Positions 12,101 through 63,314 of a DNA stretch of 64,000 nucleotides are shown piece after piece. The first letter of the stretch is position 1; the number at the start of each line of letters is the position of its first letter. A program made the position numbers and the translations under genes. The DNA comes from Cyanidioschyzon merolae. Lineage: Eukaryota. The stretch lies in the NCBI GenBank assembly GCA_000091205.1, contig AP006496.2. One strand, written 5' to 3'. A model generated the notes under the pieces. It had not been told where the DNA came from. It was given only the letters and a program-made list of their open reading frames with translations, and made no database searches.

Positions 12101-12280
12101 AGCGATGGCTGCATATAGTCCTTCCAGGATCTTCCTCCAATCTATAGGAAACATTCCCTTTGTTGGACACAGGCGAGAAACACAGATAAAAGAAAAAGGG
12201 TCTGATCATACACGCATACCGGAACTCATTCGTCTAGATACACCAATGCAAGCACCAGAGAACGCCATCTACTTCTTCTA

Positions 12281-14199: not shown

Positions 14200-14610
14200 A
14201 TCCCAAACGCTCCCTGTCTCTTCTGGTTGAGTGGATAAGAGTGTTGGACTTTGACTTGATTCACAGCAGTGATTGCTTTCCGAGGCGAGTGCGTCACCGT
14301 CTCTCATATCGGTAGCGTCGACGAACCGAAAATTCTCGAGTTGTTCTCAAGCCCTGGTTTTCCATCATGTACTCGTTCAGTAATCGACAATATCGCATTC
14401 CACAAATCCACTATCGACAAGAACAGCGGACGTTTCCGCGTTCAGCATACAGATTGGTCGCCAAGGGGATCCTTTTGAAGAAACCCGTGAGCGCAGGATG
14501 CGACACCGATAGCGGAAACGGTGGAAGGAATCGAGGGTAGTCTGCTAAAGCCTTCGACGCCATATATTTGACGATGAAGCAAGCGTTCGCTCGCCACAGT
14601 GCGAAGCTTG
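14200..14610 (+). repeat. dispersed repeat family 3, copy 1 (~65-75% identical to 33620-34120 and 60130-60640)
   Basis: Alignable blocks with the 60130-60640 copy: 'gagtgttggactttgacttgattcacagc', 'cgatagcggaaacggtggaaggaatcgagggtag', 'gatgaagcaagcgttcgctcgccacag'. Confidence 0.5.
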
Positions 14611-15174
14611 GAGCAGGATCTTTGGTGAATACATATGGGAACACCTGTCGACCGTCAACTGTCAACGCTGCGAACAGCTAACCGGGGGATGCATCCAATG
14701 AAGATGCAATTGGAGAGTGAAGCGCATATCGCAATTTCCGCCTGCGCAGGAAATATACCGACAACAGCTGGAAACAACTCCATTGGGAATTTAAGGCTGC
14801 CATGAACATGCTTTCAGTGCAGAAAATGGAGCTGGAGGTGAAGCAGAGGACGGTGTATTTAGAGCCTTGAATAAGGAAGAAGAAAAGGAATCAGTCGCAG
14901 ACAAGGCCCATAGATACTTTCGTTGATGACAATGGGAGGAGGCCCAAACTTTAGAATGTATGCCCGAGTGAGCGTAATGGGGTGCTTCGAATTAATTCTG
15001 AAATAGGCATCTAGGGCCGTCCTTTCCATGAGATCAAATCGATGATGGACCGAACGAGCGACACAAAATGGGATCCACTTCGGTGCCTGTGTTCTCCGAG
15101 AGAGCGTGATCGGTAGCCTCCTGAGGTCCATTTCAACGCTCTCATTTCCATGCAGCATGATCCAGCCGCATCAC

Positions 15175-15310
15175 AGGGATCCCCTAAAGCGCGTTGGTGT
15201 TCATGACATTTTATCGATGGACCTACCTGGGATCCCCTGCACTGCGCATTGATGTTCATGACATTTTAGCGATGGACCTCCCTGGGATCCCCTGCAGTGC
15301 GCTTTCGATG
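15175..15310. repeat. ~55-bp tandem repeat, ~2.3 units
   Basis: Unit 'gttcatgacattttatcgatggacctacctgggatcccctgcactgcgcattgat' is repeated at 15199-15253 and 15254-15310, with a partial unit before. Confidence 0.7.
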
Positions 15311-24877: not shown

Positions 24878-25359
24878 GATGACGGCTCACTAGGATGCAG
24901 TTCTTGAACGTGCTCCGTGCCGCATGCCGCTAGAAGTACGCAACCTGTTTGGGATAGGTTCACGAAGAAGTTATGCTCCCGAAATGTTCGCCTGTGCTGG
25001 CGTCTGTGACTTGTTTTCTCTTGCACAGGCGCTTAGAGTCATAAGTATGTTTGTTTCCGTCTGTAATAAGTCAAATTAGTGCGATTGTGGAAGCTGCCTT
25101 CATTGCAATGCCCTCGACGTGAGAGGCTCCTTGCCGGAGGCTGATTCCGAACGACACGCTGCTTGGTCACGATCCTGGAATACGCAGTGTGTGTAGATGA
25201 TTGCAGGCTCCATTTTCGGCTGTTTCATATATGCGACAGAAGGCGCTGGGCATGACGAGGTCTTGCAATGACCCAAATGGCGCACCTGAACGATCTCCGG
25301 ATTGTAAACCGCTCCTCGGGGCTTCCGTGCTCGCTGCAGATCCATAAAGCGTAACTACA

Positions 25360-25745
25360 GAGCACTTAGCATCTGTTGCACGAGTAGGAAACTGGATGGA
25401 ATGCTCCACTCCAACCTGCGGCGATGCAGCACAGCAGATCCAGATACAATATTTGCAGGACATTTCGCGTCAAGTGCACAGGTAGGAAACTGAAAAGAGT
25501 GCTCCGCTCCAACCTGCGGCGATACAGCACATCAGATACAGGTAGAGTCTTTGCAAGACATTTCGCGTCAGTTGCACAGTTAGGAACCTGACAAGAGCAC
25601 TCCACTCCAGCGAACCGCAATGCAACACAGCAGATCCAAATAAGTCTTTGCTGGACATTTCGCGTCAAGTACACAGATAGGAACCTGAGAAGAGCGCTAC
25701 GCTCCAGCGTGCTGCACCGCAGCCCGAGCTCTATACACGAGATAC
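25360..25745. repeat. ~93-bp minisatellite, ~4 diverged units
   Basis: Recurring unit '...gcacaggtaggaaactg(a/g)a(a/g)agagtgctcc(g/a)ctccaacctgcggcgatgcagcacagcagatccagata...gacatttcgcgtcaagt' with period ~90-95 bp. Confidence 0.75.
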
Positions 25746-25924
25746 GCGCTGAAGCGAGGCTCCCGAGCACATCCAGAGCTACTAGCGACTGTCCAGGGCC
25801 CACCGGACGTCGATGCGTCACTAGGATTAGACAGGTCCGCGGGAATTGAACATTTAATCGAAGATCAATGGTTCCGATTTCATCTCGACTTTATGATTGC
25901 CAGGAAGTGGTGCGTTAATCGCGA

Positions 25925-27121: not shown

Positions 27122-27539
27122 AAAAATAAACGCGTATCTCTGCGCAGCTCAGAGAAACTCCAACGGTGTCACCGCTTGCAGCAGCGAATCGAGGAGAGTT
27201 TTCTCGGAATGAACTGCGAACGTGCACCGGGTCGCGACGGTGCTCAGCTGGAAGTCGCCGCCGCCGCCGCCGCCGTGCTGCACATCTGAATGGATTGACG
27301 GGCGATACAGGATGTTGTTGTGGTACAGTCTTTCATCTCCATTGTGTTCCATCCCCGGGGTTCTTGTTATCAAATGCTTTTCGCAGTTTATAGCAGATTC
27401 GGCACAAGTGCGTTCATTTAAAAGAAGTACAAATTCCAAAGGAGCGGTACGGACATGGAAGTCTAGGATCCTGGAGGGTCGATGTCGGCGCCTGCTGGAA
27501 AAAGCACGGAATACAATGCCGAGCTCAGAGGACCAAGAG

Positions 27540-29555
27540 AAGATGAAGAGGCAAAAGCAGGAGGTCCGACGTCAACAGCAATTCGAAAGGCTAGACTGTG
27601 AAGAGATTGTAGTGGAAGCCAGTCTTCATCGACATATCAATGATCCGCACAAGCGAAATATGCAAGAGGCCATCAGAAACCGTATCGCGTCGTACTCTAC
27701 GAGTGTTTGTATCGCTTCTCCAGGAATAATCCGTTTGGTGAGGGAGATGGATCACGACGTGACGGAGATCAAAACAGTCGAGGTTTCGGGGGAATTTTTC
27801 GACAGGACCTTTATTCGTTACCTGATGGTTGGCACAGGGGAAATGTCGAGGAGAAATGAGCGAGTGCAAGCCCCGCACGAAAATCATGCTGAATAACGCT
27901 TCAACGGTACTAGATATAGGGACACTGGCGAATCTACGAATACGGCGTGATGGACAACATCACGAACCTGAAGAGCCATATGACCGTGAACCTCAAACGC
28001 TTCATGATACGCTCCATCTTTGCGTTCTTCCCTGGCCTGTCTCGCAAGCGGACATGGGCCATCATCGATGTCAGCATGAACGATCGTCGGAACGAAGAGG
28101 AGATCGAAATTGTCGGTAAGAAGACGCCACGCAAGAGAAAGAATGAAGCTTCTGTAATCCGCGCGACTATTCATGAGCACCGTGCGGTCTTGGGTCTTGT
28201 AAATCCAACAGAAAAGGTAACAGATACAAAAAAGACGCTATCCCCTCATCCTGCGCTGTTTCGTCCTCCTGAACCGAGAGCTCGAACGCAAGCCCGATAT
28301 GGAGCAGCGTGCGGAAGAAAAAGCAGAGTCGGTGGAACGGAAGGTTTCCCTACTTGGGAAGCGCTTCGGCGTCGTTCTGTTGTGCAACATAAAGTCATGT
28401 TTCATGAGTATCGATTCCAGCGTCCTTTACGGTATTATGAGGGATATGTGTCCGGAGTTCTTTATCAGCAACAAGGAGTTTACAGGTCAAAACCGGGAAA
28501 CTTATTGGAGAAATAGATTCGATTCAAGCGTTTCAACACGAGCAAGAAAAGGGTACGCACGGGGCGATCGAAACCGATGTATTAGCCATGCGTGTGCACT
28601 ATCAGCGCTTAACGGCAGATTGTCCAGTTCCGTCGTCGGCTTCGCCCTCGGCGAAGCACAAAAAGAAGAAGGCGGGCCCTGGAACGTATAATCCCCCGGA
28701 GAACAACTTTGTCGTCGGCGTGGGCCCGGAGAACAAGGATATCATGAGCATCGCTGTGTCCAAGTGTGGGGAGGATGGTATCGACGGCAACTTATGCCAA
28801 AAAGACATGCATCTTTTAAAGCTATCGAGAGCGAAATATTACAGAGATTCTGGGGTATTTAATGCGAGGAAACTAATTGAGATATGGAACTCAGGAGTAA
28901 AGGAGCATCTGGAAGCGATCAGCAATGTAACGCTCCGCGGAGTGTACTTTCGAGTTTTTCCGGAATTCATGGAAACCCAAGCTGCTCATTACGAGGAGCT
29001 GCGGAAAGAGTACACAAAGCCGCGTTGGGCTCGTCAGCGTATGAACCTGTACAGACTGAAGCAGCACGCACTCGCCGACTTCCTTAATCTGTTGACCGCC
29101 CTCAAGGAGGACAAGAGTCAAAGGCTTTTATTGGCACACGGAGCAGGGAACTGGGCGTCCAAAAAAGGGAGCATACGAGCTCTATCGGCACGAGCGGACA
29201 TGGAGTGCGCACTGCGTTTTGTCACAATATCGATACATGAGTTCCGAATAGCGTACGTGCTCGATGGGCTGGAGTGTACACTTCAGAAGGTCGATACGGA
29301 CAGAAGCCAGCCGAGCGTTTCGGAGACAGAAAAGTCCGGAGAGCGGACAGAAGAGCAAATGGAACGGAGGGCACGAGTTCGGGGAATCCTTGCATATTTG
29401 AGTACAGCCAGCGGCAATGCTGGAAAGAGTCGGTGAATCGAGACTTCAACGCCGCCACCAATATCAGGAAATGTGCGGTGCTGGAGAAGAGACCCCAGGA
29501 GCTGACGCGATCCAACTTTGTCGTGCAGCCTATCAGGGTCGAAGTGTACAAGTAG
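27540..29555 (+). pseudogene. TnpB/Fanzor-like RuvC nuclease pseudogene (copy B)
   Basis: Landmarks versus ISDra2 TnpB: 'LKRFMIRSIF' ~ 'ARFVYNHFL'. 'KCGEDGIDGNL' = RuvC-I. 'AKYYRDS' ~ 'PKYYRST'. 'LYRLKQHALADFLNLLTAL' ~ '[22 protein letters not shown]'. 'AHGAGNW' ~ 'SDAGWG'. 'CIFEYSQRQC' is the second zinc-finger Cys pair. 'NRDFNAATNIRKC' ~ RuvC-III 'DRDENAALNIRR'. The protein is split over all three frames by indels (a 10-nt deletion near 28235, a frame change near 28580). Confidence 0.6.
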
Positions 29556-29660
29556 CTGAAGACGATAGCAGCGGGCCAGTCAAAATAGGCCGTAAGGCGC
29601 CTGCGCGTTGGTATGAATTTATCCAACACGGCCGAGAGAAAGTTTTCGTTTCACTGAGCG
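29525..29660 (+). other. conserved non-coding 3' tail of element B (candidate omegaRNA/fRNA scaffold region)
   Basis: Conserved with the other tails beyond the stop at 29554-29556, ending in '...gagagaaagttttcgtttcactg' (compare copy E '...gtgaaacgttttcgtt'). Confidence 0.3.
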
Positions 29661-32391: not shown

Positions 32392-33619
32392 GGCGCAATG
32401 GCCGCGGACTCTCGCCGCATGAACACCACCCAATGGTGTTTCAAGTGGGTCCTAAATACATCTAATGCTGTATTGCGAAAGCTTTTTATGTTCGATGTAG
32501 TTATACCGACGAAGTGCATGCTGTGCGTATGCGTAGAGAGGCAGCTTTCGGGTATGCTTAAAGAGCAGCGACCTCGGGCCTCGTAGCGATGACGCGACAT
32601 CGATTCCGTAGAAAGAGTGGTGAAATTGAGTGGTCGCCTGGCAGCGAAGCACGAGGGATACGTGCCGATGCCAACATTGCTGCCTTGAGCGCTGGATACG
32701 GAAATTGCGGAGCAGGGACGGAAGCCGGCGAGGGTGTCGTATGGGATGGAGGCTTTCAGGGAGGTCTCCGAACACGCCGCGCCCAAGAGACTCGTGCACC
32801 TATGGCGGATACTGCTCCAGATGCCGGGTCCGGTCGAATGCCCACACGTGGTACGTCCTCTGAGCATATGGATTGGTTGTGTGGTTCTGGTTGCGCCTTG
32901 GCTTGCCTTGCGCCGAGCGTGCTGCGCTGAGGTTAGCGAGCGCCCGCCAATCAGGACCTGACCTCGCGCGCATCCAGCAGTGGTTCAAACATGCTGCGCC
33001 CGTTGAAATGTCCTCAGAGTTGCTTGCATGTGGGCCCCAAGTGTTCTTTCCAACTTAATTCCGAATGATGTGTGGGCTTTTGCGCACGCCCGGCCGCTAT
33101 GCCTGCGAGATGCACACGCGCTACCACACTCATCTCAGGTTAAAATAGAAAAAGAACGAAGCGCACTCTGCCTGGATTTTTTATTTTCGAATTTTTTCTT
33201 AGACCTAGGTTATTGACGTTCGAAGATCATCAGTAAGAGTTTATACACTTGTACGAGGTTGCTGGGTTCTCTTTCGTTTTTTTCGGAGATGCTCCTTCGA
33301 CGCGTTGCGGCTGGAATTTATTCCTTCACCGCCACCAAGATGACTCGCGATGTATTCGAACGCGGGTTCCTAAAATGACGGATATCATTATCCCATTCAT
33401 ACGTAAAAGACTCAAATCTTCGCATTTTCTCAAATGTAGCATGCACAAACCACGCATTTCTCAACCTGCCAGCCTTTCTGTTTGACGGTAATTCGAGGGC
33501 GCAGCGACTGACGCCGCTGAACTGAGGAGCAACGAATCTCGATGTCGCCTATTGAAAACTTGTTCACAAGCTGATGACGAAAAGTGACTGAAAATGCCAC
33601 GACAAGTGATTGATTCCGT

Positions 33620-34120
33620 TTGAAAAATGAATCCTCCTATGTTTATGGTCATCGACGAAATGGAATTCATCACCTACATCATAAGTCTTACTGGATATGC
33701 TCCCAGAGGCTTACATCTCTTCTGTTTGGATGGAGAAGGGTGCTGGACTCGGACCTGTCATCGCAGCGATCGCCTCCGGTGTAGGCTGCGCCACTCTGTT
33801 TCGCGGAGGCGTGCATGGCTCGAGCTTTCTCGACTTGTTTCCCTGCCTGGGTTTTCCTTCTGGTGCTCGTATTATCGTGGACAATATCGTGTTATACAAT
33901 TCCTGTATCCAACGGAACAGCATACGCTATCGTGAGTAGCAGACAGAGTACTGGTCGAGGGTATCGCCTTACAGAATTTTTTATCGTTTAGGGTGCGGCA
34001 CCTGGCGCGGAAACGAAGGAGGACACCGACGACATCCCTCAATTCCCGTCACGGGAATGTATCGAGCACCGCAGCACGCTTTCACCTACCGCAAAGCGGT
34101 GCTCAGAGTAGGGGATATTG
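33620..34120 (+). repeat. dispersed repeat family 3, copy 2
   Basis: Aligns with 60130-60640: 'atcgacgaaatggaattcat...ctcccagaggcttacatctcttctgtttggatggagaagggtgctggactcgga' versus 'gtcgacgaaatcgcactcga...ctccgagaggtttccttctattctgtttgtatgccagagcgtgctggactcgga'. Confidence 0.6.
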
Positions 34121-34798
34121 CAGCGGACTTATGGGAACACCTGATCACGCTCACGTATTGAGAGTGCAAATAGTGTATCCAGGCTCAATACGAAGAAGAT
34201 GAAAATGGGAAGCGAAGCATGGATTGCAGCTTCCGTCTCTGAATCAAATGCCTGAACAACATCCGGAAGTACCAAAACCACGACTTGAACATTGTCTCCT
34301 TTATCTTTTGCCAGCAAACAATGAATCTGGATAGACAGAAGAGACCTGCGTAAAATAACCCTGAGATAAGAGACAAGCAAATGAAGCAGTCGCATAACCA
34401 AGTCCACAAACGCTGGTATTGATAATCGTGGAAAGAGACCCAAACTTTAGTATGCACGCCCGTATTCGCGCAATGGGCGTTTTTCATGGTTCTCAACTGG
34501 ATGTCCGCGTTGCTCTGTGTCGCTTGCTGCAATGCTTCAAAGAGAGCGCTAAACTACTCGTTTCTATAAATTACAAATTCGGCCGCATCGCAGTACCTTA
34601 TCGTTCCGAAAGGCGGTAATCGCAAGCACGACTTTTAGGTACATCACGGACATGCGCCGCGTACCGCCGTTTCTGCTCGCGAAACGCGCAGAGGGCCTCG
34701 GCCGGTGCGGCGTCATCAGCATCCCTGCCCGCGCTGCGCATGCGCTATCGTTGCTCCATATCGAGTTCGAGAACGGGAATACACGTCCTGCGAACAGG

Positions 34799-37988: not shown

Positions 37989-39419
37989 GCGCCCACTAGT
38001 CCAGACAGTTTCCAGTTTAGGAGCACCTCAGTGCCGTTGAACGCTGCGGCGTTCAGGCCTGCTGGTATGAGCGGGTACAGAACCAACGATCGTTTTCAGA
38101 GACGTTCTGGCTCGTTGGCTGATCGAATGATTCTTCCAATTTTCCGTTCGTTCAGTGAAGCAGCGCTTTTGATAGTTCATAGCAGCCAATCCTGATCAAC
38201 GTTGAAAGACTTGATGCGCTTTCTTTGTAAGTGCCTCGGAGATGATGTTACATAAAGTAAGAGGACGTTCGTAGCGGTGGATTATATACTGGGTGCAATG
38301 GGTTCTGGAACACCTGCCCAAGCACGCCCTTTTGAATCGTTTTCTGCTAGATATTCAACACAAAGAATGTTTTTGTGGATTGCGGAAAGGAGACGGAAAG
38401 ACTTTGAGATGACGGCTAGCTTGCGAAAATGCCGAAACTTCTACAAGTCTTTCATTCTTCGATTTGCACTCGGATGAGCCGCTCTTCGTGCAGTCCATAT
38501 CGTGAAGCTCGAGCATCCAGAGTAGAACTTATAAAAATGCTTGTGGGCGACGGCCTTCTCGATAACCGATTCAACTTCATACGTGCTCTGAGAAAGACTA
38601 CCAAAAAGGCCACCGTATTCGAAGAGTCCATACCGTTAACAAGCACGGTGATGAAGCGGCAGAGATCGACGAAGGAAGAAAGGGCGCCTCTATGAAAAGC
38701 CATTGCGCGTTGACCGGTACGCGATCCACTTCGGACTACAACGCGGACGCTTTATAGTCTTTGAACTCAATTCTGTTTCACAAGTGTTGCGTTGTATAGC
38801 AGCAGGTCGGAATCACGATGGAATGCACTGTGTAGATCGTAGACGGATCGCTTGTAGTATATATTCTTTAATGAACTTTGCAAGGAGGACTGCATTTTTT
38901 CCTCATTTCAGTACTAACACAGTACTCAGATAGTTGAGAGACACTGAAAGAACCAAGAACATGCGTCCCTCGCCAAAAACCGATATTCTCTAAGAATGAT
39001 TGCCGGTTGTCGTGGTAAACGACCCATTGCACACCTTCCGGGAAGGAAAAGCGACGACAGTAGCCGCCACAGGCATCTCCGTTTGTCAACAGCTCGTTCA
39101 TATTGTCCAGAAAACACTGGGATACAGTCGTAAAGAAGGTCATAGATCATTCACGGACATCTTCCACCGCAATCGCAATTACGGAATCACTGGAACGTCG
39201 CGATCGGAATGAAGTACAGGGACGTCGGCTTTCTCGTTTTAGTTGATGTGACTTGCTTCGAAGGAGACGATCGGAGCCCATCTGGGTATTCGCGGAGCAA
39301 ATAGCGCGTTGTATATCCGATCGAACTCCAAGAGAACCATGACATCATCTGTAACAGCTGCGGTGGATACATTTGGCGACATTAGTTTCGCTCGTCGAGA
39401 TGGCTCATAAAACAGCACC

Positions 39420-39926
39420 CATGACATGGAATCATCAAATACTTTTTCCACGACACCTGGCAATGTCCTTCCATTGGACAACGTGGCATTTCACCATTCC
39501 CCTCGAGTTCGAGTATTTGCCGATTCTATTCGGGTAGAATCCTCTCCTCGCCGACGATCGAGAGAAGAAGAAGAGGTGAGATAAACCAGAAAAAGTGTGT
39601 GCCTGAAGGGACGATGACGAGACTGTAATGGCACAGAGGGCACAATTTCGAGGACTCCTCGCATTGATCAGTTCAACCAGCGCCAATGCACGTAATGAGT
39701 TCATGGACCGAGACACCAACGCCGCCATCAATATCAGACGATGTTTGGTGCTGAAGACGAGACCCAAGGAGCTGACGCGATCCAAAATCCCAGGGGCAGC
39801 CTCCCAGGCTCGAAGTATGCCCGTATAAAAACTGAAACCGATAGTAGTCGTTCAGTCGGGAAAGCCCGGGAAGCGTCTGCGAGTGGGTAGATATGTATCC
39901 TCCATGGTTGTGAAACGTTTTCGTTA
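39420..39926 (+). mobile_element. Fanzor/TnpB-like element, short internal-deletion copy E
   Basis: 5' block remnant ('aatcctctcctcgccgacgatcgagagaagaagaagaggtgagata') joined at 'gggacgatgacgagactgtaatggcacagag' directly to the RuvC-III segment. ORF 39628-39828 reads '...DRDTNAAINIRRCLVLKTRPKELTRSKI', the best-preserved RuvC-III motif (ISDra2 TnpB 'DRDENAALNIRR'). The tail runs to '...gggtagatatgtatcctccatggttgtgaaacgttttcgtt'. Confidence 0.6.
39790..39926 (+). ncRNA. candidate omegaRNA/fRNA scaffold region (3' tail of copy E); speculative
   Basis: Non-coding after the stop at 39829, yet conserved with the other five tails: 'ctcgaagt.tgc', 'ctgaaaccgatagtag', 'gggaagcgtctgcgagtgggtagatatgtatcctccatgg'. 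Confidence 0.25.
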
Positions 39927-42900
39927 AGCTACACATGTAGACGCCAGGGGACCTGATTCGTGGAAAAGGGTACACCTGCATATGGGAACACAAAGAGAGG
40001 TCAACCGCAGTTGCTAAAGAAGAGACAAGCGAGAATGACGAAGACATCCGCCCTAGCAACGATTCAGTTGCTTGCTCGCGTACAAGTCGCCATAAAAGAC
40101 AGGATCGCACGGCTCCTCATCTTTCGTACAAGCGCCCTTCGCGGCTGCTCCGCTCCATATTCCTCTGGCCTGTTCTTGAACAACTTCGATTTCTATCCCT
40201 GAAAAAATCAAAGAGTATGCAGCTGAGGTTGGCGTTGAGCTGCTCTTTGTGCCCCCGAAATCTACCTGGTTCAATCCAGCCGAAGGCGTTCCTCTGCTGT
40301 AAAGAGTCATTTTTACCCGCACACACCAGTTCTCGAGTTGTATGCATCCGTCACTCCGTTCTTTGCCGAGTTGCTCCCTATTTACACCAACCCTTAACTG
40401 CCCTGTTTCGTTTCCGCTCATGTGCGAGAAAGAGCGAGCAAGGTGTACTTCGGTCCGTGGTCATGACGCGTAAGGTGACGCAAATGTACTTGAGAAGCAC
40501 TAGATACGAAGACAGCAAATGCCAGCTCCGGTGCCGTGGTCTACCCACTGCGTCTAAAACCCAGAGCAGAAACGGATATGAGGTACTGCGCCCGACTGCA
40601 TTCGATTCCTTCAAGTAGAGAAGGAGGCGGAGAAGTATAAGAAGAAGGAACAACGGGACAATGAAGGGAAAGACTCTTCTTAAAAGCCGACGATGAAGGA
40701 CGACAAGGAGAGACTGTCGAGGCGGAATGCCCGGTCTGAAGTCATTTTGTCATTGCCCCTGTACTAAAACATGTCAACAGAGAGAATCTTCCGAAACGTA
40801 GCACGGAGGGCCCCATTTCAGATGGGGTAACTTCTTACCCGAGCAGGACTTGTTCATCTACCCTTGCGTTGGCGCACTTCCTCAGGCAAATGTTGATCGG
40901 AGCTCTCTGTGCAAGGCTGCAAGCCGTCCATATTCCACCGGAATACGTTGATCAGTCCTTTGTCTGAGAACTGATGCTCGTGACAGAAGACGGGACACAG
41001 CCTGATTATGAATTCAAAGATTTGCATACACGCTTTCCGGAAGAACCAGACGCGATGCCGCGCAACCCAGGCGATGGGATGATCTGCAGCGACAGTGCCA
41101 AACGAGTACCAAGCCATCCTCAATAACCGTGCACGGGGTCAATGTAGAGCGCTTCATGAAAATCGCCTTGTGGGCGTTAGGGCTTCATCATAGAGGACCA
41201 GAAAAGTGGAGACGAATGGAAGGGATTCTTGGGGTTTCAATCAAGGCGAATGACGAGTTGGTTGCGGCGGAGAGCGAGCTGGTACCGGGATCGGGAGAAA
41301 TGCCGCAGTGTGAGCGAGCGTCGCTGTAGCTCGTCGGAACTCATTGTGTGGTCGTCGGCATCGAACTGACAGAGGTCGTGTCCAAAGGATGTTTGAAACG
41401 CAATGCACGACTTGCTTGCATCTCGCACAATTACTTTCTCCTGAACAGAGCCCTCCGGAGCGCAGCAAACTCCATTCTCGAATCTGAACGTAATCCCCTC
41501 CTCAGGCGCGTATTAGAACTGGTTTCGACGTGCAACATCAAGGCTCGTAGAATCACCGAAGACTCGTTCGTGCTATGTGGATTGCTCAGTGAGCCACAGC
41601 TGGTCTCTGCGAGCAATCATTGAACATTCAGAGCACTCCACAAAGTGCGTTGGCGGAGCTCGTTCAAGGATCCTCGTTTTCAGGGAGGAAATGGAAATCC
41701 GTTGACAGGGAATACGGTGACTCAAGGCATATCAGTGTGCACGCAGCTGTAAAGCCGCGGCCTGTGCCGAGTAACGACGCTCGTTCTCAGCCGTTCAAAA
41801 TCGACTAAAAGAAACGCTCACGAATTCGCGTGGATCTGTTTTTTTTGAGAATATCGTGGTTATTGCCTGTCCCTGAATCAGCACGACGCAGCCGAAGATC
41901 TGAACGGAAAGCGGGCACTGCTTCTCAATTTTCCCACGGATCGGCATTCTCGAGAGTTGGGCCTGATGGACTCCACGAGGCATCTCAACAGGTAGAATGG
42001 CGGCGTCGGGACCCACCTCGACGCATTGAGCACGGTATCGAGCAGACGAGCATACGTTGTCGGCTTCATTCAGAGAATCGATCAGCGTCCGAATCGCTTA
42101 TGTGGAGCATCTTTTGCGGGAGGATATGAGACAGCGCCGGGGCATCCACCGGTCACCGTTGTACGAAGGCAGGAGGCTTGCACTCACCAACTTGTTCAAT
42201 GAATCTGAAAAGACGAAGAAGCAGCGTCGTTTTGAGGTAGCCTACGGCGCTGGCCGTGCCGCACCGTGCAACGGCTGCACTCCATCTCATTCGACCAGAG
42301 TGTGCAACGAGTGCAGGAATGGATTCTACACGATTCCCATCGATAACTTCAGGTCTGCGAATACAAATCACGAGCACGGGTGCGCGCTGATACTGGCAAA
42401 GAAGTGCGTAAAACAGAACCAGATGGGTTACATGGTGCACGGTAAGCTGACCGATCGTCGGATGGTGAGGCAATCGAAGTTGAGAGGCATGTTATAATGC
42501 GGTTCCACCAGCAACTAGGCGTGCACACAGTTTTCGCATCGTGACACGAACGCCTCCAATAATATCCGAAAACGGCTCGTGATTCCGGAGCGTTTATCGA
42601 CTGTGTTACAAGCGAACCTTTGAGGCTTTCAATTTGTACTCAGTATGGGTGTTACACTGAGACAATGAAAGCCTGCGATGACAACAATCAATGGTCAGGA
42701 TAGAGGACGCTTGGTTCCCGCCTAAACCAATGCACTGGTATGGTATGATCAGCAATCCAGACGAGTGGTGCTTTCGCCAAGCAGCGAACCAGCCCAGGCA
42801 CTTGTTTCATTCTTATCGTGTATGATCGATGCATGCAAATGGGATTGCCTAGAAGCGCAAACGCCACTGGCAGCCAGAAGAGAGACTACCATGCGTCTCT

Positions 42901-44481: not shown

Positions 44482-45229
44482 TGTGACACAGAGTTTCTGG
44501 TATGTTGCGAGATCGATGAATACAACCAGGGATCCTGCGGGTGTACGTTGGCTATCGGCAGCCAGGGAAGCGACAACCACCCCACTCTTTACCTTCTGCG
44601 TGCCATGAATCGCTGATCAGGCTTCATTATTTCTGGTATCATATTTGGTTCTAAGGACCTTCAGCGCATAAAGCCTACAGAGGGCGCCTGCTGTGGCTCC
44701 AAAAAAGGACACGCAATCGAACGGGGATGCTCAGCGAATGCATCTGCGGTCGATGGATTGCGGCACCAAGGCAACGGCGACGGATGCGGCGTGGAATCGA
44801 ACGACTCTGCAGGCACATTCCAGTGGCGGTGCGCCTGCGAACCTGCGAACGGACCTGCTGTGTGGACCTGCTCCGTGAACGCAGCTACCAACAATGGGGA
44901 ACGCACAGGTGCCCGGGCATACCCAATTTCCAACTTGCATATCCGAATGCCAAGAAACAGCTCCGCCTTTGTCGTTTGGTGCTACCCCGAGCTTGCACGG
45001 TGATCGAGCTGCACGACAACTCAGACATTTCCCAGTCAAAATCCGAATCGTCCCTATTTCCCGTCAATACGGCACCTCCGACCGGGCGACTAATGTGGCG
45101 TTGTTCATGCCTGCTAGAGTGCCAGCGAGAACGACGCTCGATGTCCCTTCTACTGACAGCAATCATGCATCCTGCGGATTCAGATTCTATGAATTTCTTC
45201 TCTACCGTAAAACGCAGCACCGGCAGAGG

Positions 45230-45450
45230 CACACGCATCACAGAGCAGAGGCATCGGCATCGGCACCGGCATCGGCATCGGCACAGGCACACGCATCAGA
45301 GGGCATCGGCACAGGCACACGCATCAGAGGGCATCGGCACAGGCACACGCATCAGAGGGCACCGGCATCGGCATCGCGAGCATCGGCGATCGACGGCGCA
45401 CGAGGGCAGAGCGGCCGCTGCGCGCGCCACTCACACGCACACGCACACGC
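45230..45450. repeat. compound low-complexity tandem repeats: (GGCATC)n, a 28-bp unit x3, (CACACG)n
   Basis: 'ggcatcggcatcggcaccggcatcggcatcggcac'; 'gggcatcggcacaggcacacgcatcaga' x3; 'cacacgcacacgcacacgcaca'. Confidence 0.8.
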
Positions 45451-45637
45451 ACATCGTCCATCCAAGAACCGCACGCGTCAGCGCATGCGGACGATGCGGT
45501 GGCGACGGCGGTGCCAGTGTGATGCCTTCAGGTTAGCGCATTGTGGACGACGACAAAGACGACGACGTAGGCGTCGCTTTGATACACTTCAAACAGTTTC
45601 TGAAGCCTCCGATACGCAAATTAGTACTTAGCAAAAA

Positions 45638-46819
45638 ATGACAGCCACCGAGGAGGTTCGTCGCTTTTTCTTCACGTCGGAGTCGGTGAACGAGGGACAC
45701 CCGGACAAGCTCTGTGATCAAGTTTCTGACGCTGTTCTAGACGCCTGCCTGGCACAGGACCCGTTTTCAAAAGTGGCCTGCGAGACAGCAACGAAAACAG
45801 GTTTGATAATGGTTTTTGGGGAGATCTCAACGAAAGCGACTGTCGATTATGAGAAAGTTGTTCGTGAGACGGTTCGGGAGATCGGCTTCGACGACGAAGA
45901 AAAGGGTCTCGACTTTCGCTCTTGCCGGGTGCTGCAGGAGATCCACGAGCAGTCACGCGAAATCGCAGCGAGCGTATACGGAGGTCGGGACACGCTGGAT
46001 ATCGCTGCGGGTGATCAGGGCATCATGTTCGGATACGCTACGAACGAAACGCCAGAGCTGATGCCACTCTCTCACTCTCTAGCGACGAAACTAGGCAAAA
46101 GACTCACGGATGTGCGTAAGCAAGGCATTCTACCGTACATCAGACCTGACGGGAAGACGCAGGTCACAGTAGAGTACGAAAGACGTGGAGGCGCTCTGAA
46201 ACCGCTGCGTGTCGATACGATTGTGATTTCAACGCAACACGCACCGCATACATCGCAGGAGAAGCTCCGAGCGGATTTGCGGGAACACGTCATTCGACCT
46301 GTAGTGCCTGCCGAGTTCCTCGATGATCGAACGAGGTACGTGCTGAACCCGAGTGGGAGTTTCACGGTTGGGGGTCCAGCTGGTGACGCGGGTCTCACCG
46401 GGCGCAAAATTATCATCGATACGTACGGAGGCTGGGGCGGGCACGGAGGAGGTGCCTTTTCCGGAAAAGATCCCTCGAAAGTCGACCGTAGCGCGGCGTA
46501 CATGGCGCGCTGGATGGCCAAATCCGTGGTGGCGGCCGGCCTCGCTGCACGCTGTCTCATTCAGCTCAGTTATTCCATCGGCGTCGCAGAGCCGACGTCC
46601 ATCTTCCTGGACACATACGGGACAGCCAAGCCCGACTGGACCGACGACCAGATCCTGAAAGTTGTCGAGAGGAACTTTGATTGCCGCCCTGGCGCGATCA
46701 TTCGCGAGCTAGATTTACTGAAGCCCAAGTACCGCAAAACCGCTGCATATGGTCACTTTGGCCGTGAGGATGATCCCGACTTTACCTGGGAGATACCGAA
46801 GCGTCTGCAGGTTGACTAG
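45638..46819 (+). CDS. metK: S-adenosylmethionine synthetase (methionine adenosyltransferase)
   Basis: 393 aa. '[29 protein letters not shown]', '[10 protein letters not shown]', '[34 protein letters not shown]' are canonical MAT motifs across the whole length. Confidence 0.95.
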
Positions 46820-47699: not shown

Positions 47700-48230
47700 T
47701 ACGTGCCATCGAATGCTTTTTTCGCGGTTGTAGCAGACGCGTTCATGTTTAGAAATAAAAAATCCAAGGGAAAGGTACGGACGTGGTTGTCGGGGATCCC
47801 GGAGGGCCGGCATCGTCGGATCCGACGAAAAAACGAAAAAATACTCTCCTCGTCGACCATCGAGCGAAGAAGCGCAAGTGAAGAAGCAGCAGCAGAAGGG
47901 TTGTACGCGAGAACAGGTGCTTGCCCTACGGGACGATGACGAGACTGCTATGGCACAGAGCGCACGGGTTCTAGGTATTCATGCAAAGGTGCGTTCCGCC
48001 AGCGGCAATGCACGTAAGCAGTTTGTCAAACGACACCTCAACGCCGCCATCAATATCAGACGATGGATGGTGCTGAAGACGAGACACGAGGAGCTGATGC
48101 GATCCAACACTTTGTGGAGCAGTCTCTTGTACTCGAAGTGTACACGGTGGAGCTGAAGCCGTCAACCCGTGGCCGGTCAAAAACTGATGGGAGGCTTCTT
48201 CGCATGGGTATTAGTGTACCAGCTCGAGCC
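47700..48230 (+). mobile_element. Fanzor/TnpB-like element, short internal-deletion copy C
   Basis: 5' block 'aatgcttttttcgcggttgtagcagacgcgttcatgtttagaaataaaaaatccaagggaaaggtacggacgtgg...ggatcccggagggccggcatcg', then junction 'gggacgatgacgagactgctatggcacagag', then RuvC-III ('KRHLNAAINIRRWMVLKTRHEELMRSN', ORF 47878-48156) and a partial tail. Confidence 0.6.
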
Positions 48231-54479: not shown

Positions 54480-55110
54480 ATTCTAGACAAGATCAGCAAA
54501 ACGAACAATGTTTCACGGTCATGGAAGATAAATATATCCAACCATCCGCAGACGCTTCCCAGCCTTTCCCAACCGGCAGCATGCTATTGGTTTTAGTTTC
54601 TCTCTGCACACATCGAGCCTTTGAGGTAGCCCTACGAAGTTTGATTGCGTCAGCGCCGCGGGTCCCGTCTTCAACACCAAGCATCTTCTGGTATGGGTCG
54701 CGGGATTGAAGTCCCACTTCATGATCTCCTTGCGTTTATTGCCTCTGGTTGAGCTCACCGAGGGAGAGCGTGCTCGAGCTCGCACCCTCTGTGCCACCAA
54801 AGTCTCCTCATCATCCCGTTGAGTAAACACCTTTTCTCGCTTATCTCACATCCTCTTCTTCTTCTTCTCGTCATTTGCGCTTCTTCACTTGATGGTCGGC
54901 TAGAAGAGGATTTGATCGATTCTTTTTTTCGGTGAGCCGGCGATGACGGCCCTCCGGGATCCCCGCCTTCCATGTCCATACCCTTCGCTTGGATTTTTTA
55001 TTTCTTGAAAATGAACACATTCCTTTGGAGGCTTCGGCGAGAACCATTCCGGAGGGGTAAGCGCTTGCGGAAGAGAAACGATATGTGCCACGGTATGGCG
55101 CCATGTGCGG
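54480..55110 (-). mobile_element. Fanzor/TnpB-like element, short copy D (minus orientation), degenerate
   Basis: Minus-strand ORFs 54871-55104 ('RNKKSKRRVWTWKAGIPEGRHRRL', the 5' block) and 54519-54830 ('WDFNPATHTRRCLVLKTGPAALTQSNFVG', a degraded RuvC-III). The tail ends near 54495 ('...ccatgaccgtgaaacattgttcgtt' on the minus strand). Confidence 0.55.
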
Positions 55111-56030
55111 AACGCCTCAGCGATTCGCCCAGTGGACCGATTATTACGTTTCACGGTAGAACGCACTCCTTGGATGAAGCTGAACCTCGTAGAGTACGCA
55201 GGAATGAAAAGCAGCTCTACTCCCCGGATAGAATCGGCAACAGCTCGAACGCAAGAGGAATGATCAAATACCACGCTGTCCGATAGGAGGTCGTCGCCAG
55301 ACGTCAGGGAGGAGTCTCCAATGGTTCGGCAAAGTTGACGGTGCTGTTGTATGACGCTCTTCCACTTGAGAAACCGAGGTCGCCGAATGACTCCACCACG
55401 CCAAGAATAGATGGTGATGTCATCCTTCTCTTTGGGTTCGATTTCACATGCAACGGGCTCCCGGCTGCGCGACAACCCAGGTGCACTCCGACCGTTTCGT
55501 CCGAAGCAAGTCTCGTCAACTGAAACAGAAAAACCGATGTGCCTGTGTCTCATTCCGATCCCAAAGTTCCAAGAATGTTGTAGCAGGTACGATGTCGGTG
55601 GAAGATGGCGGTGCTTGAACTTGGACTCTTTCCTTGAGACTGTATCGCGGTGTTTTCAGGGCCAAAATGAACAAGCTGTTGAGAGAAAGAGACGCCCCTG
55701 GAGACTGCCATCGTCGCTTTTTGCTCTTCGTAATGCGTCCAAGAGGTCGTCTTCTACCATTGACGGCAAACAGCGTCTGATTATACCTGTTTTTGGCACA
55801 GAGCGCACATAGGCTTCTTTCTGTCGCTGTGGCTTAATCATGTGAGGACTGCGATATGACCGACCTGAGAGAGGAATGCTGTCCTCCTTGCGCTTTTCAT
55901 TAAAGAACACATCCTATGTGCAATGCGTCTACGATCTACAGCATACATTGCATCGTTATTTCGATCTCCTGCTGCACACCACTTCGGGGGTGAAATCATA
56001 CAGAGCTGAAAGACTCCAAAAGGAAAGATT
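54985..56030. repeat. dispersed repeat family 2, copy 1 (~95% identical over ~780 bp to 61935-62700; weaker similarity to ~62970)
   Basis: Near-identical runs, e.g. 'cattcctttggaggcttcggcgagaaccattccggaggggtaagcgcttgcggaagagaaacgatatgtgccac'. The longest ORFs (minus 54900-55553, 217 aa; plus 55411-55812) have no recognisable domain. Abuts the 5' block of copy D. Confidence 0.8.
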
Positions 56031-56224
56031 CGCAGCGAGCATCCAGGTCGCACGAGTCGCTTCCAGCAGGCACCTCGGGATAGAACACAAGCGTCCAGTG
56101 GCGGTGAGCCGTGTTCGCAGTCGAGGCACTTCGAGAAGGCGCTTTTCTTTCCAGAAAACGTTGACGGGCTTGGTGTGTGCGAGCGTGCGTGCGTACCACC
56201 TAGGCAGCGAGTCCCAGAGCGTTC

Positions 56225-56965: not shown

Positions 56966-57537
56966 TCTGTGCGGCAAGCCTGCTGAAAGGCATCGTCCAG
57001 CGCAAGTCCAAAGGCGGCGCAACAGCAGCATCTATCTGCACAACGGGAACGCACACCAGAAGTGCGACGAGAACAAGTCACGGGTTTGCATCCTGGCTGC
57101 AGCGGGAGCACCTGGAACGCACTCATGACACACACTCTCTCACCGACAGGGGCACGAGAACAAGTCGCAAGTTTGCACCCTGGCTGCAGCGGGAGCTCCT
57201 ACAACGCACTCGTGACACGCTCTCACACCGACAAGGGCACGCGCCTCAGTTTTGCGTTCGTGCTGCTGGAAGTGGATTGACTGGTGCACGATGACTGTCG
57301 ACATCGGGGCCGTCGCTGGCTGTCTCTGAGCGGACTCGGCAGCAGTGCCTCGTGTAGTGTTACCAGTATCGAAGTGCAAGAGCGGAAACCTCCAAACCTG
57401 AAAAACATGCGCGACGCCCGAACAGCCGAATGCGTCATGCTGCGGACCCACTGGAGCACGCACCGGGTTAGAAACGCTGCCCTGTGCACGCGCTCGCAAG
57501 GTTGCACTGCAGTAAAACCTTCGATGCGCTTTGCGAG

Positions 57538-59362: not shown

Positions 59363-60129
59363 TACGCGAGTAGAAGCGAAAGCTTGGCCAGTGCGGCTGC
59401 AGCGCGCGCGCGCCCAAGCGCATACCTCGAGCGCGCAACACCAGTCGTGTTGCCTGCTGGAGTGCAGTCCGCGGATGGAGGCAGTGTTCCGGTGAGTCGG
59501 CAACGCTGCGGAGAGGCGAGGTACATTTCAGGTGAGTTGTGCTTCAGACACTAGGAGACGCTTGCGAAACGAGAACAGCGTTTGCTGGACGCTGGGGAAC
59601 GCGATCGAGGCGGTGAGCCTGCGGGTACCCGGCTTGCAGTAGACGCTAGACCAGTGCCAGGTGAAGATGGAACGCGAAACTATTCGGTCTCTTCCTGGTA
59701 TGAAGTTTTCTCCAAAGTTTTCGTTGGATATAATACGCCGAGATTCGACGTGGGAATGTAAATGGCTTTGGGATTTGTGAATGGTTTCAGGTTTCTCTGG
59801 TGTGTTTTCCAGAGTGACTCCAATGACGCTCTGCCGCTGGAACTCGTTCCATCACGGGAATCAAGAAGGTTCGCGATGCCCCCGAACAAGCACCCGGATC
59901 ACGACCAACACCCTGATCCATTGCACATGTGCAAGTCTCGACGCTTCTACTTTCGTTACGAGTCGCACGCTCAAATCACGTATTCTTGGGGGTTTCGACC
60001 TTCCTGTTTCAAGGCGATTCGCTGGTGCAGCATTGGGCGCTGCTGGTGTGGCGAGGCAAAACGATGAATGTCGCCTCGTGATGACTTGTTCACGAGCTCA
60101 TACGGAAAGAACGCGGAAGTTGTGACGTC

Positions 60130-60640
60130 AGATGATGAACTCTGATCGAAATATAAATCCTTGTTTCTTTCTTGCGGTCGACGAAATCGCACTCGACACT
60201 GGCAGCATGAAACTTATCACGGGACATGCTCCGAGAGGTTTCCTTCTATTCTGTTTGTATGCCAGAGCGTGCTGGACTCGGATTTCAGTCATCAGGGCGA
60301 TCGTTTCTTGCGGGGCGTATTTTACTGGTTTGCACAAAGGGAGCGTATACGGGTAGAATTTTTTCGGCTTCTTCAGCCTGGCTTTGCGTTCCATATCTGT
60401 TTCGTCATGGACAAGCTCACGTTATACAAAAATACCCATCGAATGGAACAGCGTGAGCGTGCAGCGAATAGCGTCCACCCCGGCGAACATTGCCCAGAGA
60501 AGGCCTGTGACCGCAGGGTACGGCATCGGGCGCGGAAACGGAGAAAGGGCATCGAGAGGAGCCCTCTGTTCCCGTTATCAGCATGTATCGAGCGATGAGG
60601 CAAGCGTTCACGTGCCACAGAGCTGTGCCCTGACCAGGAG
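60130..60640 (+). repeat. dispersed repeat family 3, copy 3
   Basis: Aligns in blocks with 33620-34120 and 14200-14610: '...gcgcggaaacggagaaagggcatcgagaggagcc...', '...gatgaggcaagcgttcacgtgccacagagc'. Confidence 0.6.
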
Positions 60641-61524
60641 GTGCGATGGAAATTTGCAGACACCTGACCACAGCCAAGTACAACCGATGCGAATAACGCA
60701 CCCAGGCTGTCTACGAAGGAGATGCAGAAGGCGTGCGAAGCGCCGATCGAAACGAACGCCCCTGCATGAAACGCGAAGAAAAAACCGGAAGCTGCGATAG
60801 AATGACTTTAACGATAACATCAGCATCCTTCGACTGATAACACAACGGCGCCGGCGAGCCAGGAAACACCGGTGTGTTGAAAGCGCGCGATAGGCGTACT
60901 GGAACGGGAGCAAGCACCGAAAAAGCGCCCCAAACGCTTGTCTTCATGACATTCGTAAGAGACCAAAATCTTTAGTGTATGCACCCGAGTTCACAAAGTG
61001 ACCTGTTCCATCATGGTCTGACACGGGCGTGTCTCGATTCACGTGCCGAATGTGCAGTCAAAAGCGCTCCACAGAGATAGAACGGCTTCGCGATGCCTTC
61101 CCAGACCTCAGCTCGACGCGTGGAGAGAAGGCACACCAGCCGGGACTCCTTGTTGGCATGAGCGCCCACAGCTGGTTGGCCCAGGCCTGCGTGCAGCGGC
61201 GCCGAACGATTCCATGAAGGAACTCGTACACGACAGCGGCGCGGTACTGCTGGGCATCCCTTCACAGTCTGCAGGCGACTGCGTCGCGCTCACGCCCCGT
61301 GAGTGTCGCCACGCCACCCTGCACTGCGGTGATGCAATACGCATTCGCTCAGCCGACGTGTCTGGTCAGCATGGCTTTCCAACTAATTTTCTCCATTTCG
61401 CGTAGGCGATAGCAGGGACGCCCGCGCGACCTGAAGCCCTGAAAGACCGAAGCTTTAGCAGACGGCAGCATGTGCGAGCATCAGCGGAACGCATCACTCA
61501 AACTGTGCACCACACTCGCCGGGT

Positions 61525-61990
61525 ATACCATGGGGTCGATGGAATGAAACCGGTTTGCGACCATGGTTCATAAATGTATCTACCCACGCGCAGACACCTC
61601 CCAGCCTTTTTCGACCAGCCTCCTGCTATCGATTTCAGCTTTTCCGTGTACACCTCGAGCATCGGAGGCTGACCCACAAAGTTGGTTCATGCCAGCTCTG
61701 CGCGTCTCGTCTTCAGCACCGCACATCACCTGATATTGATCGCGGCATTGAAGTCTCGGCTCGCAAAATTCCTTGCTTTAATTGCGGCTGCGGGAACTCA
61801 CCAGTGTAAGGATTGCTAGAGCTCGTGCCCTCCGTGACATGTGCTGTTCTGGCAGCACACTGTACTTTACGATCGACAAAGCGCACTGCTGGCTTGTCTC
61901 CACCTAAACCGTCTGAAGTATGCGTCCGAGGTCGTCGCTTAATTTCTTGAAAACGAATACATTCCTTTAGAGGCTTCGGCGAGAACCATT
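61525..61990 (-). mobile_element. Fanzor/TnpB-like element, short copy F (minus orientation)
   Basis: The minus strand of 61690-61775 reads 'DFNAAINIR*CAVLKTRRAELA*TNFVG' (RuvC-III with in-frame stops). Tail: '...ggctgggaggtgtctgcgcgtgggtagatacatttatgaaccatggtcgc'. A 5' block remnant at 61935-61990 joins repeat family 2 copy 2. Confidence 0.55.
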
Positions 61991-62970
61991 CCGGAGGGGT
62001 AAGCGCTTGCGGAAGAGAAACGATATGTGCCACTGTATGGCGCCATGTGCGGAACGCTTCAGCGATTCGCCCAGTGGACCGATTATTACGTTTCACGGTA
62101 GAACGCACTCCTTGGATGAAGCTGAACCTCGTAGAGTACGCAGGAATGAAAAGCAGCTCTACTCCCCGGATAGAATCGGCAACAGCTCGAACGCAAGAGG
62201 AATGATCAAATACCACGCTGTCGGATAGGAGGTCGTCGCCAGACGTCAGGGAGGAGTCTCCAATGGTTCGGCAAAGTTGACGGTGCTGTTGTATGACGCT
62301 CTTCCACTTGAGAAACCGAGGTCGCCGAATGAATCCACCACGCCAAGAATAGATGGTGATGTCATCCTTCTCTCTGGGTTCGATTTCACATGCAACGGGC
62401 TCCCGGCTGCGCGACAACCCAGGTGCACTCCGACCGTTTCGTCCGAAGCAAGTCTCGTCAACTGAAACAGAAAAACCGATGTGCCTGTGCCTCATTCCGA
62501 TCCCAAAGTTCCAAGAATGTTGTAGCAGTTATGATGTCGGTGGAAGATGGCGGTGCTTGAACTTGGACTCTTTCCTTGAGACTGTATCGCGGTGTTTTCA
62601 GGGCCAAAATGAACAAGCTGTTGAGAGAAAGAGACGCCCCTGGAGACTGCCATCGTCGCTTTTTGCTCTTCGTAATGCGTCCAAAAGGTCGTTATCCACG
62701 AATCGCCGCAAGCATGCACACGGCATATCGGTTATTGACGCATCGTGCATCTACCTGATTCTCTCAGCGTACCTGAACCATCAAAGTCCTCTTGTATGAC
62801 TGACCTCAACGAGGAATACATTCCTCTTTGCACTATTCCATATATAATCTAGCCCATAGGCAGTTCGTCTAAGATCTATAGAATACATTGCATCGCGATG
62901 TCGATCACCTGCTGCACACCACATCTTGAGTGAAATCAAAGAGAGTCGAAAGACTACGACAGGAAAGCGA
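61935..62970. repeat. dispersed repeat family 2, copy 2
   Basis: See 54985-56030. Minus-strand ORF 61713-62495 (260 aa) is nearly identical to the ORF at 54900-55553. Confidence 0.8.
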
Positions 62971-63314
62971 TTCGCTGGTGCACGGATCGCCGCCGCGCCG
63001 CCGCCGCCGCCGCATCGCCGCCGCCGCGGAAACGCTCCTGCGCATACCAGTGGCAGTGCTAGTCGCACTCGTGGCATCCGAGGAGGCGCTACAGTGTGGC
63101 AAGTGCCACGGTTGCAGGTCCTTGGGCCTGTTGGAACAGTGCACGCTACGAGTCATGGTGTTGGACGGCGCGGGACACGCCCTAAGCTTGGCTTTTGTAG
63201 GAGGAATTCCGACCTCGAAGAGACGCGCGGCAGTGCGCCCGGGGTCCCGTCCTCGAGGGTCACCGCCCTTCTGGAGTAACTTCCCGTGCACTTGGCGATG
63301 GGGGAGCGCGCGGA

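Follow-up and report, generated by a model that had tools for sequence, protein, structure and literature searches.

To our knowledge, the genome of Cyanidioschyzon merolae is usually cited as nearly transposon-free. Here we analyse a 64-kb stretch of C. merolae 10D nuclear DNA (the window, on which all copy coordinates are given) and describe in it a family of decayed repeats that join a remnant of an IS630/Tc1-mariner transposase to a remnant of Fanzor1. Capture of Fanzor1 by mariner-type elements has been known since 2013 (PMC3627910). Fanzor1-carrying Tc1/mariner elements, e.g. PUl-1 and PGv-1, have terminal inverted repeats (TIRs) of 24-33 nt, which their deletion or Fanzor-only derivatives share (Bao & Jurka 2013, Mobile DNA 4:12, PMC3627910). 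The only C. merolae Fanzor1 listed by these authors is CMe-1 (PMC3627910); its element CMe-1A is 3169 bp long, is present in ~150 copies and has neither TIRs nor a transposase (Bao & Jurka 2013, PMC3627910). In their account of C. merolae repeats, Nozaki et al. (2007, PMC1955436) give 26 retroelements, 8 'class II' elements and a 3.2-kb repeat in 253 copies that has a WSV486-like open reading frame (ORF), and in the same account the 8 class II elements weakly resemble bacterial transposases by BLASTX (E=0.07 to 6e-7; PMC1955436). De novo searches for MITEs (miniature inverted-repeat transposable elements) found none in C. merolae (PMC3964958).

Like CMe-1A, the present family is a decayed Fanzor1-bearing repeat of this genome with several copies in the window, but CMe-1A is without TIRs and transposase and the present family has both. 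Membership in CMe-1A was rejected: a tblastn search with CMe-1 matches none of the four family copies in the window (its matches lie at 5094-7172, 27501-29609, 39619-39885, 41432-42626, 47941-48138, 54543-54806 and 61582-61933), and blastp against the family consensus gives E=0.03, around RuvC-III. The low copy number and weak bacterial-transposase similarity reported for the 'eight class II elements' fit an IS630-like family of at least nine copies, whereas the class II text of Nozaki et al. describes no TIRs, Fanzor1 half or chimeric structure (PMC1955436); the two are probably the same. The sequence at 60130-60640, which had been flagged as a repeat, very probably represents the central part of one copy of a cut-and-paste transposon that is dead and non-autonomous, a deletion derivative of an IS630-type element carrying Fanzor1.

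Copies, ends and coding ancestry of the family

Copies in the window were compared by sensitive blastn between loci, and a family profile was scanned with nhmmer. The original prediction had described three copies of ~500 bp in one orientation, at 14200-14610, 33620-34120 and 60130-60640. The similarity among these loci is real and far above chance, with mutual alignments of 1.2-1.38 kb at 59.6-61.3% identity (E=8e-66 to 6e-99). The coordinates cover only the middle third of each element, each copy being ~1.38 kb long (1.37-1.39 kb), and a fourth copy at 9362-10730 had been missed; all four are on the + strand, as predicted. Pairwise identity among the four is 58-62% (E=3e-57 to 6e-99), that of copy D to every other copy is 59-62%, and the family profile finds exactly these four copies in the window with no weaker match. 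Element bounds come from an 8-copy alignment and the consensus TIRs. The sequences used for comparison included environmental and metagenome contigs (handles in L) and the proteins P0134, P0137, P0138 and P0288.

9362-10730, + strand: copy A (blastn, nhmmer, element bounds; tblastn match to P0134 at 10447-10626)
13621-15011, + strand: copy B (blastn, nhmmer, element bounds; contains 14200-14610; tblastn match to P0134 at 14337-14680)
33125-34505, + strand: copy C (blastn, nhmmer, element bounds; contains 33620-34120; tblastn matches to P0134 and P0137 at 33988-34323)
59647-61031, + strand: copy D, a full-length decayed non-autonomous TIR transposon (nhmmer model positions 15-1510; 8-copy alignment and consensus TIRs; contains 60130-60640)

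Dispersal beyond the window was assessed by searching a metagenome collection for a single degenerate 29-mer, chosen where invariant columns run densest. The scan recovered orthologs of the window copies in closely related strains, 98.7-99.7% identical to the window, and two new paralogs with different neighbouring genes, E (L010, L011, L032) and F (L021, L031). Three further paralogs, G7 (L037), H8 (L038) and I9 (L042-L044), were brought in later by protein-profile searches. All five paralogs outside the window lie on other C. merolae-like contigs, which takes the family to at least nine loci, and the nine copies are mutually 58-64% identical in a star-like pattern. Beyond the element ends the copies share no homology, their flanks being unrelated. 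The earlier view of a dispersed mobile-element family is borne out; the repeat is neither a gene family nor a segmental duplication. All parts of the element are conserved to a similar degree, 30-40% of columns being invariant in the four window copies, and the 5'-most part is the least conserved. The interspersed conserved blocks of ~65-75% identity that had been predicted were therefore right as to similarity and wrong as to patchiness, with an identity of ~60% spread evenly; the AT-richer islands said to hold the copies were recovered for copy D (50-54% GC vs 58-63% in its flanks), the only copy examined.

The family consensus ends in 28-nt TIRs, the 5' end reading TACACCCGTGTCAGGCTAAAAATGGAACA and the reverse complement of the 3' end TACACCCATGTCAGACT-AAAATGGAACA. 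The two arms match at 26/29 positions and score 41, above the maximum of 28 (mean 15) among 2000 shuffles, so that the search for TIRs proposed with the original prediction was positive. In copy D the arms at 59651-59673 and 61005-61027 are the first-listed inverted repeat of the region. TA stands at both consensus termini; per copy, A is present at 12/15 ends and T at only 6/15.

No long ORF is present in single copies, and six-frame tblastn comparisons between copies are similar in all frames. Three-base periodicity in pairwise mismatches was flat, and stop counts in alignment-defined frames with copy F as reference were uninformative. Coding ancestry was revealed only by a multi-copy consensus. 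Built from six copies, this consensus restored two reading frames, one of ~280 codons in the 5' part and one of ~215 codons in the 3' part, offset by one base, a result independently backed by intact proteins that match the raw window copies by tblastn. The non-coding origin assumed in the original prediction does not hold on either count. The resulting features of copy D are as follows.

59647-59675, + strand: 5' TIR (family consensus TACACCCGTGTCAGGCTAAAAATGGAACA)
59762-60435, + strand: IS630/Tc1-mariner (DDE_3) transposase remnant (consensus translation, hhalign, tblastn)
~60174, + strand: first catalytic Asp of the transposase (VAIDE)
~60222, + strand: GYAPRG motif of the transposase
~60404, + strand: second catalytic Asp (IMDN)
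60431-60440, + strand: breakpoint from transposase (consensus frame +0) to Fanzor1 (consensus frame +2), common to all copies
60440-60978, + strand: Fanzor1 (TnpB-like) remnant, last ~180 codons (Pfam, hhalign, tblastn)
~60522, + strand: GIGRGNGG loop
~60655, + strand: WEHLTT with the RuvC-II Glu
~60679, + strand: first CxxC
~60798, + strand: NQDLNAAINIL, RuvC-III
~60973, + strand: stop codon
60979-61031, + strand: 3' non-coding tail and 3' TIR (TIR at 61003-61031)

In the consensus, the 5' 60% of the element encodes an IS630/Tc1-mariner DDE transposase with its helix-turn-helix region and the first and second catalytic Asp. The 5' frame matches the NCBIfam model 'IS630 family transposase' (E=1.4e-8) and Pfam DDE_3 (E=3.4e-6; 27.4 bits, slightly below the cut-off of 28.6), and contains the motifs VAIDE, GYAPRG, R..VIAAI.S.G and FIMDNIAFHKS. 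Alignment by hhalign to the intact IS630-type protein P0138 gave a probability of 98.8% (E=6e-17) over aa 27-238, including the helix-turn-helix region, and P0138 also matches raw copy D by tblastn at 59826-60374 (E=3e-5). A second intact transposase, P0288, is 37% identical to the consensus 5' frame. A complete catalytic triad within an intact ORF was found in no copy, the region of the third residue being replaced by Fanzor1 sequence. The weakly conserved translations YAPRGLHLFCL and HAPRGFLLFCL, which had been taken as a sign of non-coding DNA, are the GYAPRG motif of this transposase.

The consensus 3' frame matches PF07282 (Cas12f1-like TNB; the TnpB/Cas12f zinc ribbon) with E=4.3e-6, above the gathering score. 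By hhalign it aligns to the C-terminus of the intact 682-aa protein P0137 with a probability of 99.6% (E=6e-24, 49% identity), and the family and P0137 have in common the motifs VIVG.GIGRGNGG, PVKGMYRAMKQAF, WEHLTT.KC.RC, RNFR.C.KC and NQDLNAAINIL. The C-terminal motif defined for Fanzor1, [TS][TS]-x-x-C4 zinc finger-x(5,50)-RD (Bao & Jurka 2013, PMC3627910), is found in the consensus as TTVKCHRC...CMKC...NQDLNAAINIL, with QD replacing RD. At the level of raw sequence, P0134 matches copy D by tblastn at 60517-60693 (E=5e-13) and also matches copies A, B and C. P0137 has 378 relatives at 50% clustering, mostly of 650-850 aa, and a profile of 25 of them matches the solved Fanzor1 structures 9cf0 (Parasitella, 1.8e-15), 8gkh (Spizellomyces, 3.9e-13) and 9cer (Guillardia, 1.1e-5), as well as the mimivirus TnpB-like protein L79. 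The relationship of the element to solved Fanzor1 proteins is an indirect one, running via the P0137 family profile; phmmer searches of PDB sequences with the consensus and with P0137 returned nothing useful, and the family profile was needed.

The two remnants meet at the same point in every copy. Homology to P0138 ends at MDNIAFHKS, just past the second catalytic Asp, and homology to P0134 and P0137 starts at RMEQRALA.AAD, overlapping the nucleotides of the transposase end. In every copy, Fanzor homology begins only ~75 codons before the zinc finger, upstream sequence being transposase-derived; every copy lacks the N-terminal half of Fanzor1 and the RuvC-I Asp (GxDPG), which would precede the zinc finger by 125-275 residues. 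Because the breakpoint is identical in every copy, all copies descend from one founder that was already chimeric, and because this founder had neither the third transposase residue nor the Fanzor RuvC-I Asp, it was non-autonomous from birth.

Intact relatives and a probable origin by internal deletion

An intact element with the layout predicted for the ancestor exists in environmental data. The 2.7-kb contig L041 (ENA ERZ27265945) carries TACAACCATGTTAAGTGAGAATGGAACA, the 5' TIR of the family, ~70 nt upstream of the gene for the intact IS630-like transposase P0288, which matches DDE_3 (7.8e-26) as well as HTH_32 and HTH_33. A Fanzor1 ORF follows 48 bp past the transposase on the same strand, runs to the contig end and by hhalign aligns with the Fanzor1 profile over the profile's N-terminal half (100%, E=6e-49). 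Two further contigs, L036 (JGI 3300035702, 7.7 kb) and L039 (SRR20069381), carry intact Fanzor1 genes of the same lineage and, within ~30-100 nt past the Fanzor1 stop, the terminal sequence of the family, ...TGTTCCATTTT...ACAT.GGTGTA; the 3' tail sequence is kept between the family, L036 and L039. On L036 the Fanzor1 gene adjoins genes for an RNA ligase, a 2H-SAK protein and a Peptidase_S74 protein at 55.7% GC, and the source of this contig could be a virus or an alga.

Read together, the sequences of L041, L036 and L039 reconstruct a putative layout of 5' TIR, transposase, Fanzor1, tail and 3' TIR, and comparison with it marks the window family as its likely internal-deletion derivative. L041 has the TIR, transposase and Fanzor1 architecture of PUl-1 and PGv-1. 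Unlike those elements, the window copies lack the 3' quarter of the transposase and the 5' three-quarters of Fanzor1, their transposase is closest to bacterial-type IS630 models, and TA duplications are not demonstrable. The ancestor would have consisted of a 5' TIR, an IS630/Tc1-mariner-type DDE transposase, Fanzor1 (an RNA-guided RuvC nuclease), a short tail and a 3' TIR. A deletion would then have removed the stretch from just past the second transposase Asp to ~180 codons before the Fanzor1 end, leaving a founder with both ends that encoded neither an active transposase nor an active nuclease. This founder may have been mobilised in trans by the transposase of a full-length relative acting on its TIRs, probably in a single amplification burst after C. 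merolae split from its sequenced relatives; a single burst is favoured because all pairs are ~60% identical in a star-like pattern. The copies would have no present function.

A different origin for the chimera, by nested insertion or illegitimate recombination between separate IS630-like and Fanzor1 elements, is unlikely. Fanzor elements are often chimeric (Bao and Jurka, PMC3627910), and L036 has an intact Fanzor1 with the 3' terminus of the family and no 5' TIR or transposase detectable within ~700 bp upstream of Fanzor1. Against this stand the adjoining transposase and Fanzor1 genes of L041, on one strand and behind the 5' TIR of the family, and the fact that the family ends are inverted copies of each other. 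With this layout and these inverted ends, a simple deletion suffices.

Decay, age and genomic position of the copies

First, second and third codon positions differ from the consensus to nearly the same degree, by 0.24/0.27/0.30 for the transposase and 0.27/0.24/0.24 for Fanzor. No copy is free of stops in the restored frame, and the open frames differ between copies; among the six frames of the transposase part, the restored one still has the fewest stops (32 vs 46-83). This pattern fits neutral decay, which would amount to ~0.26 differences per site after one round of amplification.

The site of copy B gives an indication of age. In two syntenic relatives, the metagenomic species of contig L033 (eIF2alpha 86% identical) and Cyanidiococcus yangmingshanensis (L035), the genes are conserved and the corresponding intergenic region measures ~265-270 bp vs 2.0 kb in C. 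merolae. No match to the family was found at the syntenic loci of L033 and L035, even with nhmmer --max. This suggests that copy B was inserted after the split from these relatives, the intergenic regions themselves being too diverged to align. Gene order between L033/L035 and window 1-23000 is conserved for Rubisco LSMT, proteasome alpha, eIF2alpha, a 436-aa gene, formin, MoaC and CDP-diglyceride synthase, and wherever the present family or a CMe-1A repeat sits, C. merolae has intergenic regions longer by 1.5-3 kb; the repeats therefore explain much of the local size difference.

Several observations weigh against a neutrally decaying deletion derivative moved in trans. In individual copies the TIR search did not rise above shuffled controls, most being too decayed; target-site duplications could not be established, a putative TA duplication fitting the data with a weakly supported flanking TA and no empty site available at short evolutionary distance. 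L041 ends inside the Fanzor1 ORF, so that no single contig has both TIRs around both intact genes. C. merolae itself yielded no relative that is full-length or intact, and neither profile search returned an NCBI-sourced protein; mobilisation in trans is therefore something we infer. Strains diverge somewhat less in the copies (0.44-0.59%) than in other repeats (0.65-1.2%) and most other intergenic DNA (0.5-1.0%). No clear difference was seen between the copies and 4-fold degenerate sites (19/3437 vs 20/2658, the latter 0.75%), and the copies could be under weak constraint, the strain test being low-powered with strains that differ by only 0.4-1%. Lastly, neutrality does not predict the position of the copies: in all seven whose left flank can be interpreted, a divergently oriented gene or ORF starts opposite the 5' end of the element. 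Copy I9 (L042) is ambiguous, and H8 is not among the seven. The seven sites are the following.

Window 9362, 13621, 33125 and 59647: 5' ends of copies A to D
L010 ~1930-2575: site for paralog E
L031 ~6000-6403: site for paralog F
L037 5633-5865: site for paralog G7

Distances from the 5' ends to the neighbouring start codons, estimated from ORF starts and element bounds, are roughly 30-650 bp. The divergent neighbours are eIF2alpha, a conserved 436-aa gene, a TPR protein, WD40, EF-P and LigT, the seventh being an unannotated 212-aa ORF; six of the seven are thus identified or syntenically conserved genes. By chance alone such an orientation would arise in all seven about 1 time in 128. The pattern may reflect a bias of insertion or retention, or promoter co-option.

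Co-option has to be weighed on this evidence. The copies would then be decayed by origin, with survivors serving as promoter or insulator modules, as long non-coding RNA (lncRNA) units or, through the 3' tail, as a source of Fanzor guide-like (omega) RNA. The nearness of all seven 5' ends to the starts of divergent neighbours speaks for it, as do a strain divergence about half that of other repeats and a 3' tail kept between the family and intact Fanzor1 loci. We nevertheless consider it quite unlikely: conservation among paralogs is low and uniform and is least in the 5'-most part, substitutions fall about equally on the three codon positions, strain divergence cannot be told clearly from that of 4-fold sites, and copy B is missing in the syntenic relatives. 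The orientation bias itself rests on seven cases (p ~0.01-0.02) and could reflect selection against the opposite orientation. Retention of the copies at divergent promoters, as promoter or insulator elements or as a source of truncated helix-turn-helix protein, or with tails that give guide-like RNAs for a Fanzor1 elsewhere, is very unlikely; if true, it would mean that a relic of fused transposase and Fanzor had been exapted in a free-living eukaryote whose genome is among the most reduced.

A non-coding short interspersed nuclear element (SINE) or MITE, with patchy blocks held by RNA or DNA structural constraint, was the explanation first proposed, and is highly improbable. It accounts for the lack of a long ORF in the window copies, for single-copy six-frame comparisons that look alike, and for TIR-bounded copies dispersed in one orientation in AT-richer DNA. 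The conserved blocks, however, are protein motifs of two coding ancestries, translating to GCWTR (transposase), GIGRGNGG.H (the Gly-rich loop of Fanzor) and AMKQAF (Fanzor). With conservation uniform and codon positions about equally diverged, nothing indicates a constraint from RNA structure. A SINE was rejected, as a tRNA scan and a search of Rfam at gathering thresholds were negative, and the element has inverted-repeat ends, no tail and remnants of DNA-transposon proteins. The MITE label is apt in part. Like MITEs and Ds-type internal-deletion derivatives, the family is non-autonomous, keeps both TIRs and was presumably mobilised in trans, a MITE-like mechanism; unlike them it is 1.38 kb long, with large coding remnants and few copies (at least nine), and a classical MITE (<~800 bp, no coding remnant, high copy number) was rejected on all three points. 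Least likely of all, and scarcely conceivable, is a local segmental tri- or quadruplication on chromosome 14: four copies do lie within 52 kb in one orientation, but homology ends at the TIRs between unrelated flanking genes, five paralogs sit on other contigs beside different neighbours, which excludes a purely local triplication, and divergence is the same in all pairs.

Other repeats in the window and significance

The window has a GC content of ~55% and long intron-less ORFs, including those for a formin, a PPR protein, anthranilate synthase and Rubisco LSMT; the ORF at 45638-46816 encodes a SAM synthetase with no difference from BAM81320.1 / XP_005537356.1 of C. merolae 10D, and both the ORFs and the GC content agree with this organism. 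Several other repeats are present. CMe-1A has copies at 4178-7271 and 27370-29653 (+ strand), with 57-68% amino-acid identity by tblastn and frameshifts, and 3' fragments at 39619-39885 and 47941-48138 (+ strand) and at 54543-54806 and 61582-61933 (- strand); the first 630 nt of its consensus match 4178-4807 at 82%. We infer that CMe-1A and the 253-copy 3.2-kb repeat of Nozaki et al. (2007) are the same, since a Fanzor1 of white spot syndrome virus appears in the list of Bao & Jurka. Another repeat family, of ~3.3 kb, lies at 38297-42760 (+ strand), at 11477-12230 (- strand) and at 1108-4337 of L031, directly downstream of paralog F, with 59-60% identity between loci. It holds a very divergent Fanzor1-like pseudogene (41432-42626; CMe-1 aa 274-699, 25-37% identity), and its copy at 38297-42760 is split at 38751-39930 by the nested insertion of another repeat.

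A ~0.8-kb repeat joined to a CMe-1 C-terminal fragment is found at 38751-39537 (+ strand), 55220-56020 and 62162-62956 (both - strand). Its ORFs at 54900-55553 and 61713-62495 (- strand) give weak matches to DDE_3 and to the Mos1 helix-turn-helix (HTH_48), with E ~0.04-0.07; kinship with the transposase half of the present family was rejected, as hhalign gave a probability of 0.1% and the two are unrelated. The segments 54997-56143 and 61939-63090 are 86% identical, with a 300-nt stretch at 98%, and no repeats in the window are younger; the ~0.8-kb repeat is also where metagenome contigs break. Tandem arrays occur at 25336-25721 (four 98-nt units overlapping the ORF at 25366-25821, - strand), at 15189-15298 (two 55-nt units upstream of the formin gene), at 57054-57224 (two 87-nt units) and at 45216-45373 (28-nt units inside the ORF at 44727-45536).

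The present family accounts for several gene-free 1.4-kb stretches on chromosome 14, and such stretches in the annotation should not be mined for lncRNAs without controls. Current understanding is not overturned. The repeat that had been read as a structured non-coding element is the fossil of two fused protein genes, and direct comparison shows how a non-autonomous element can arise by internal deletion of a composite of transposase and Fanzor1. The family adds to C. merolae a second Fanzor1 lineage, tied to an IS630-type transposase and bounded by TIRs.

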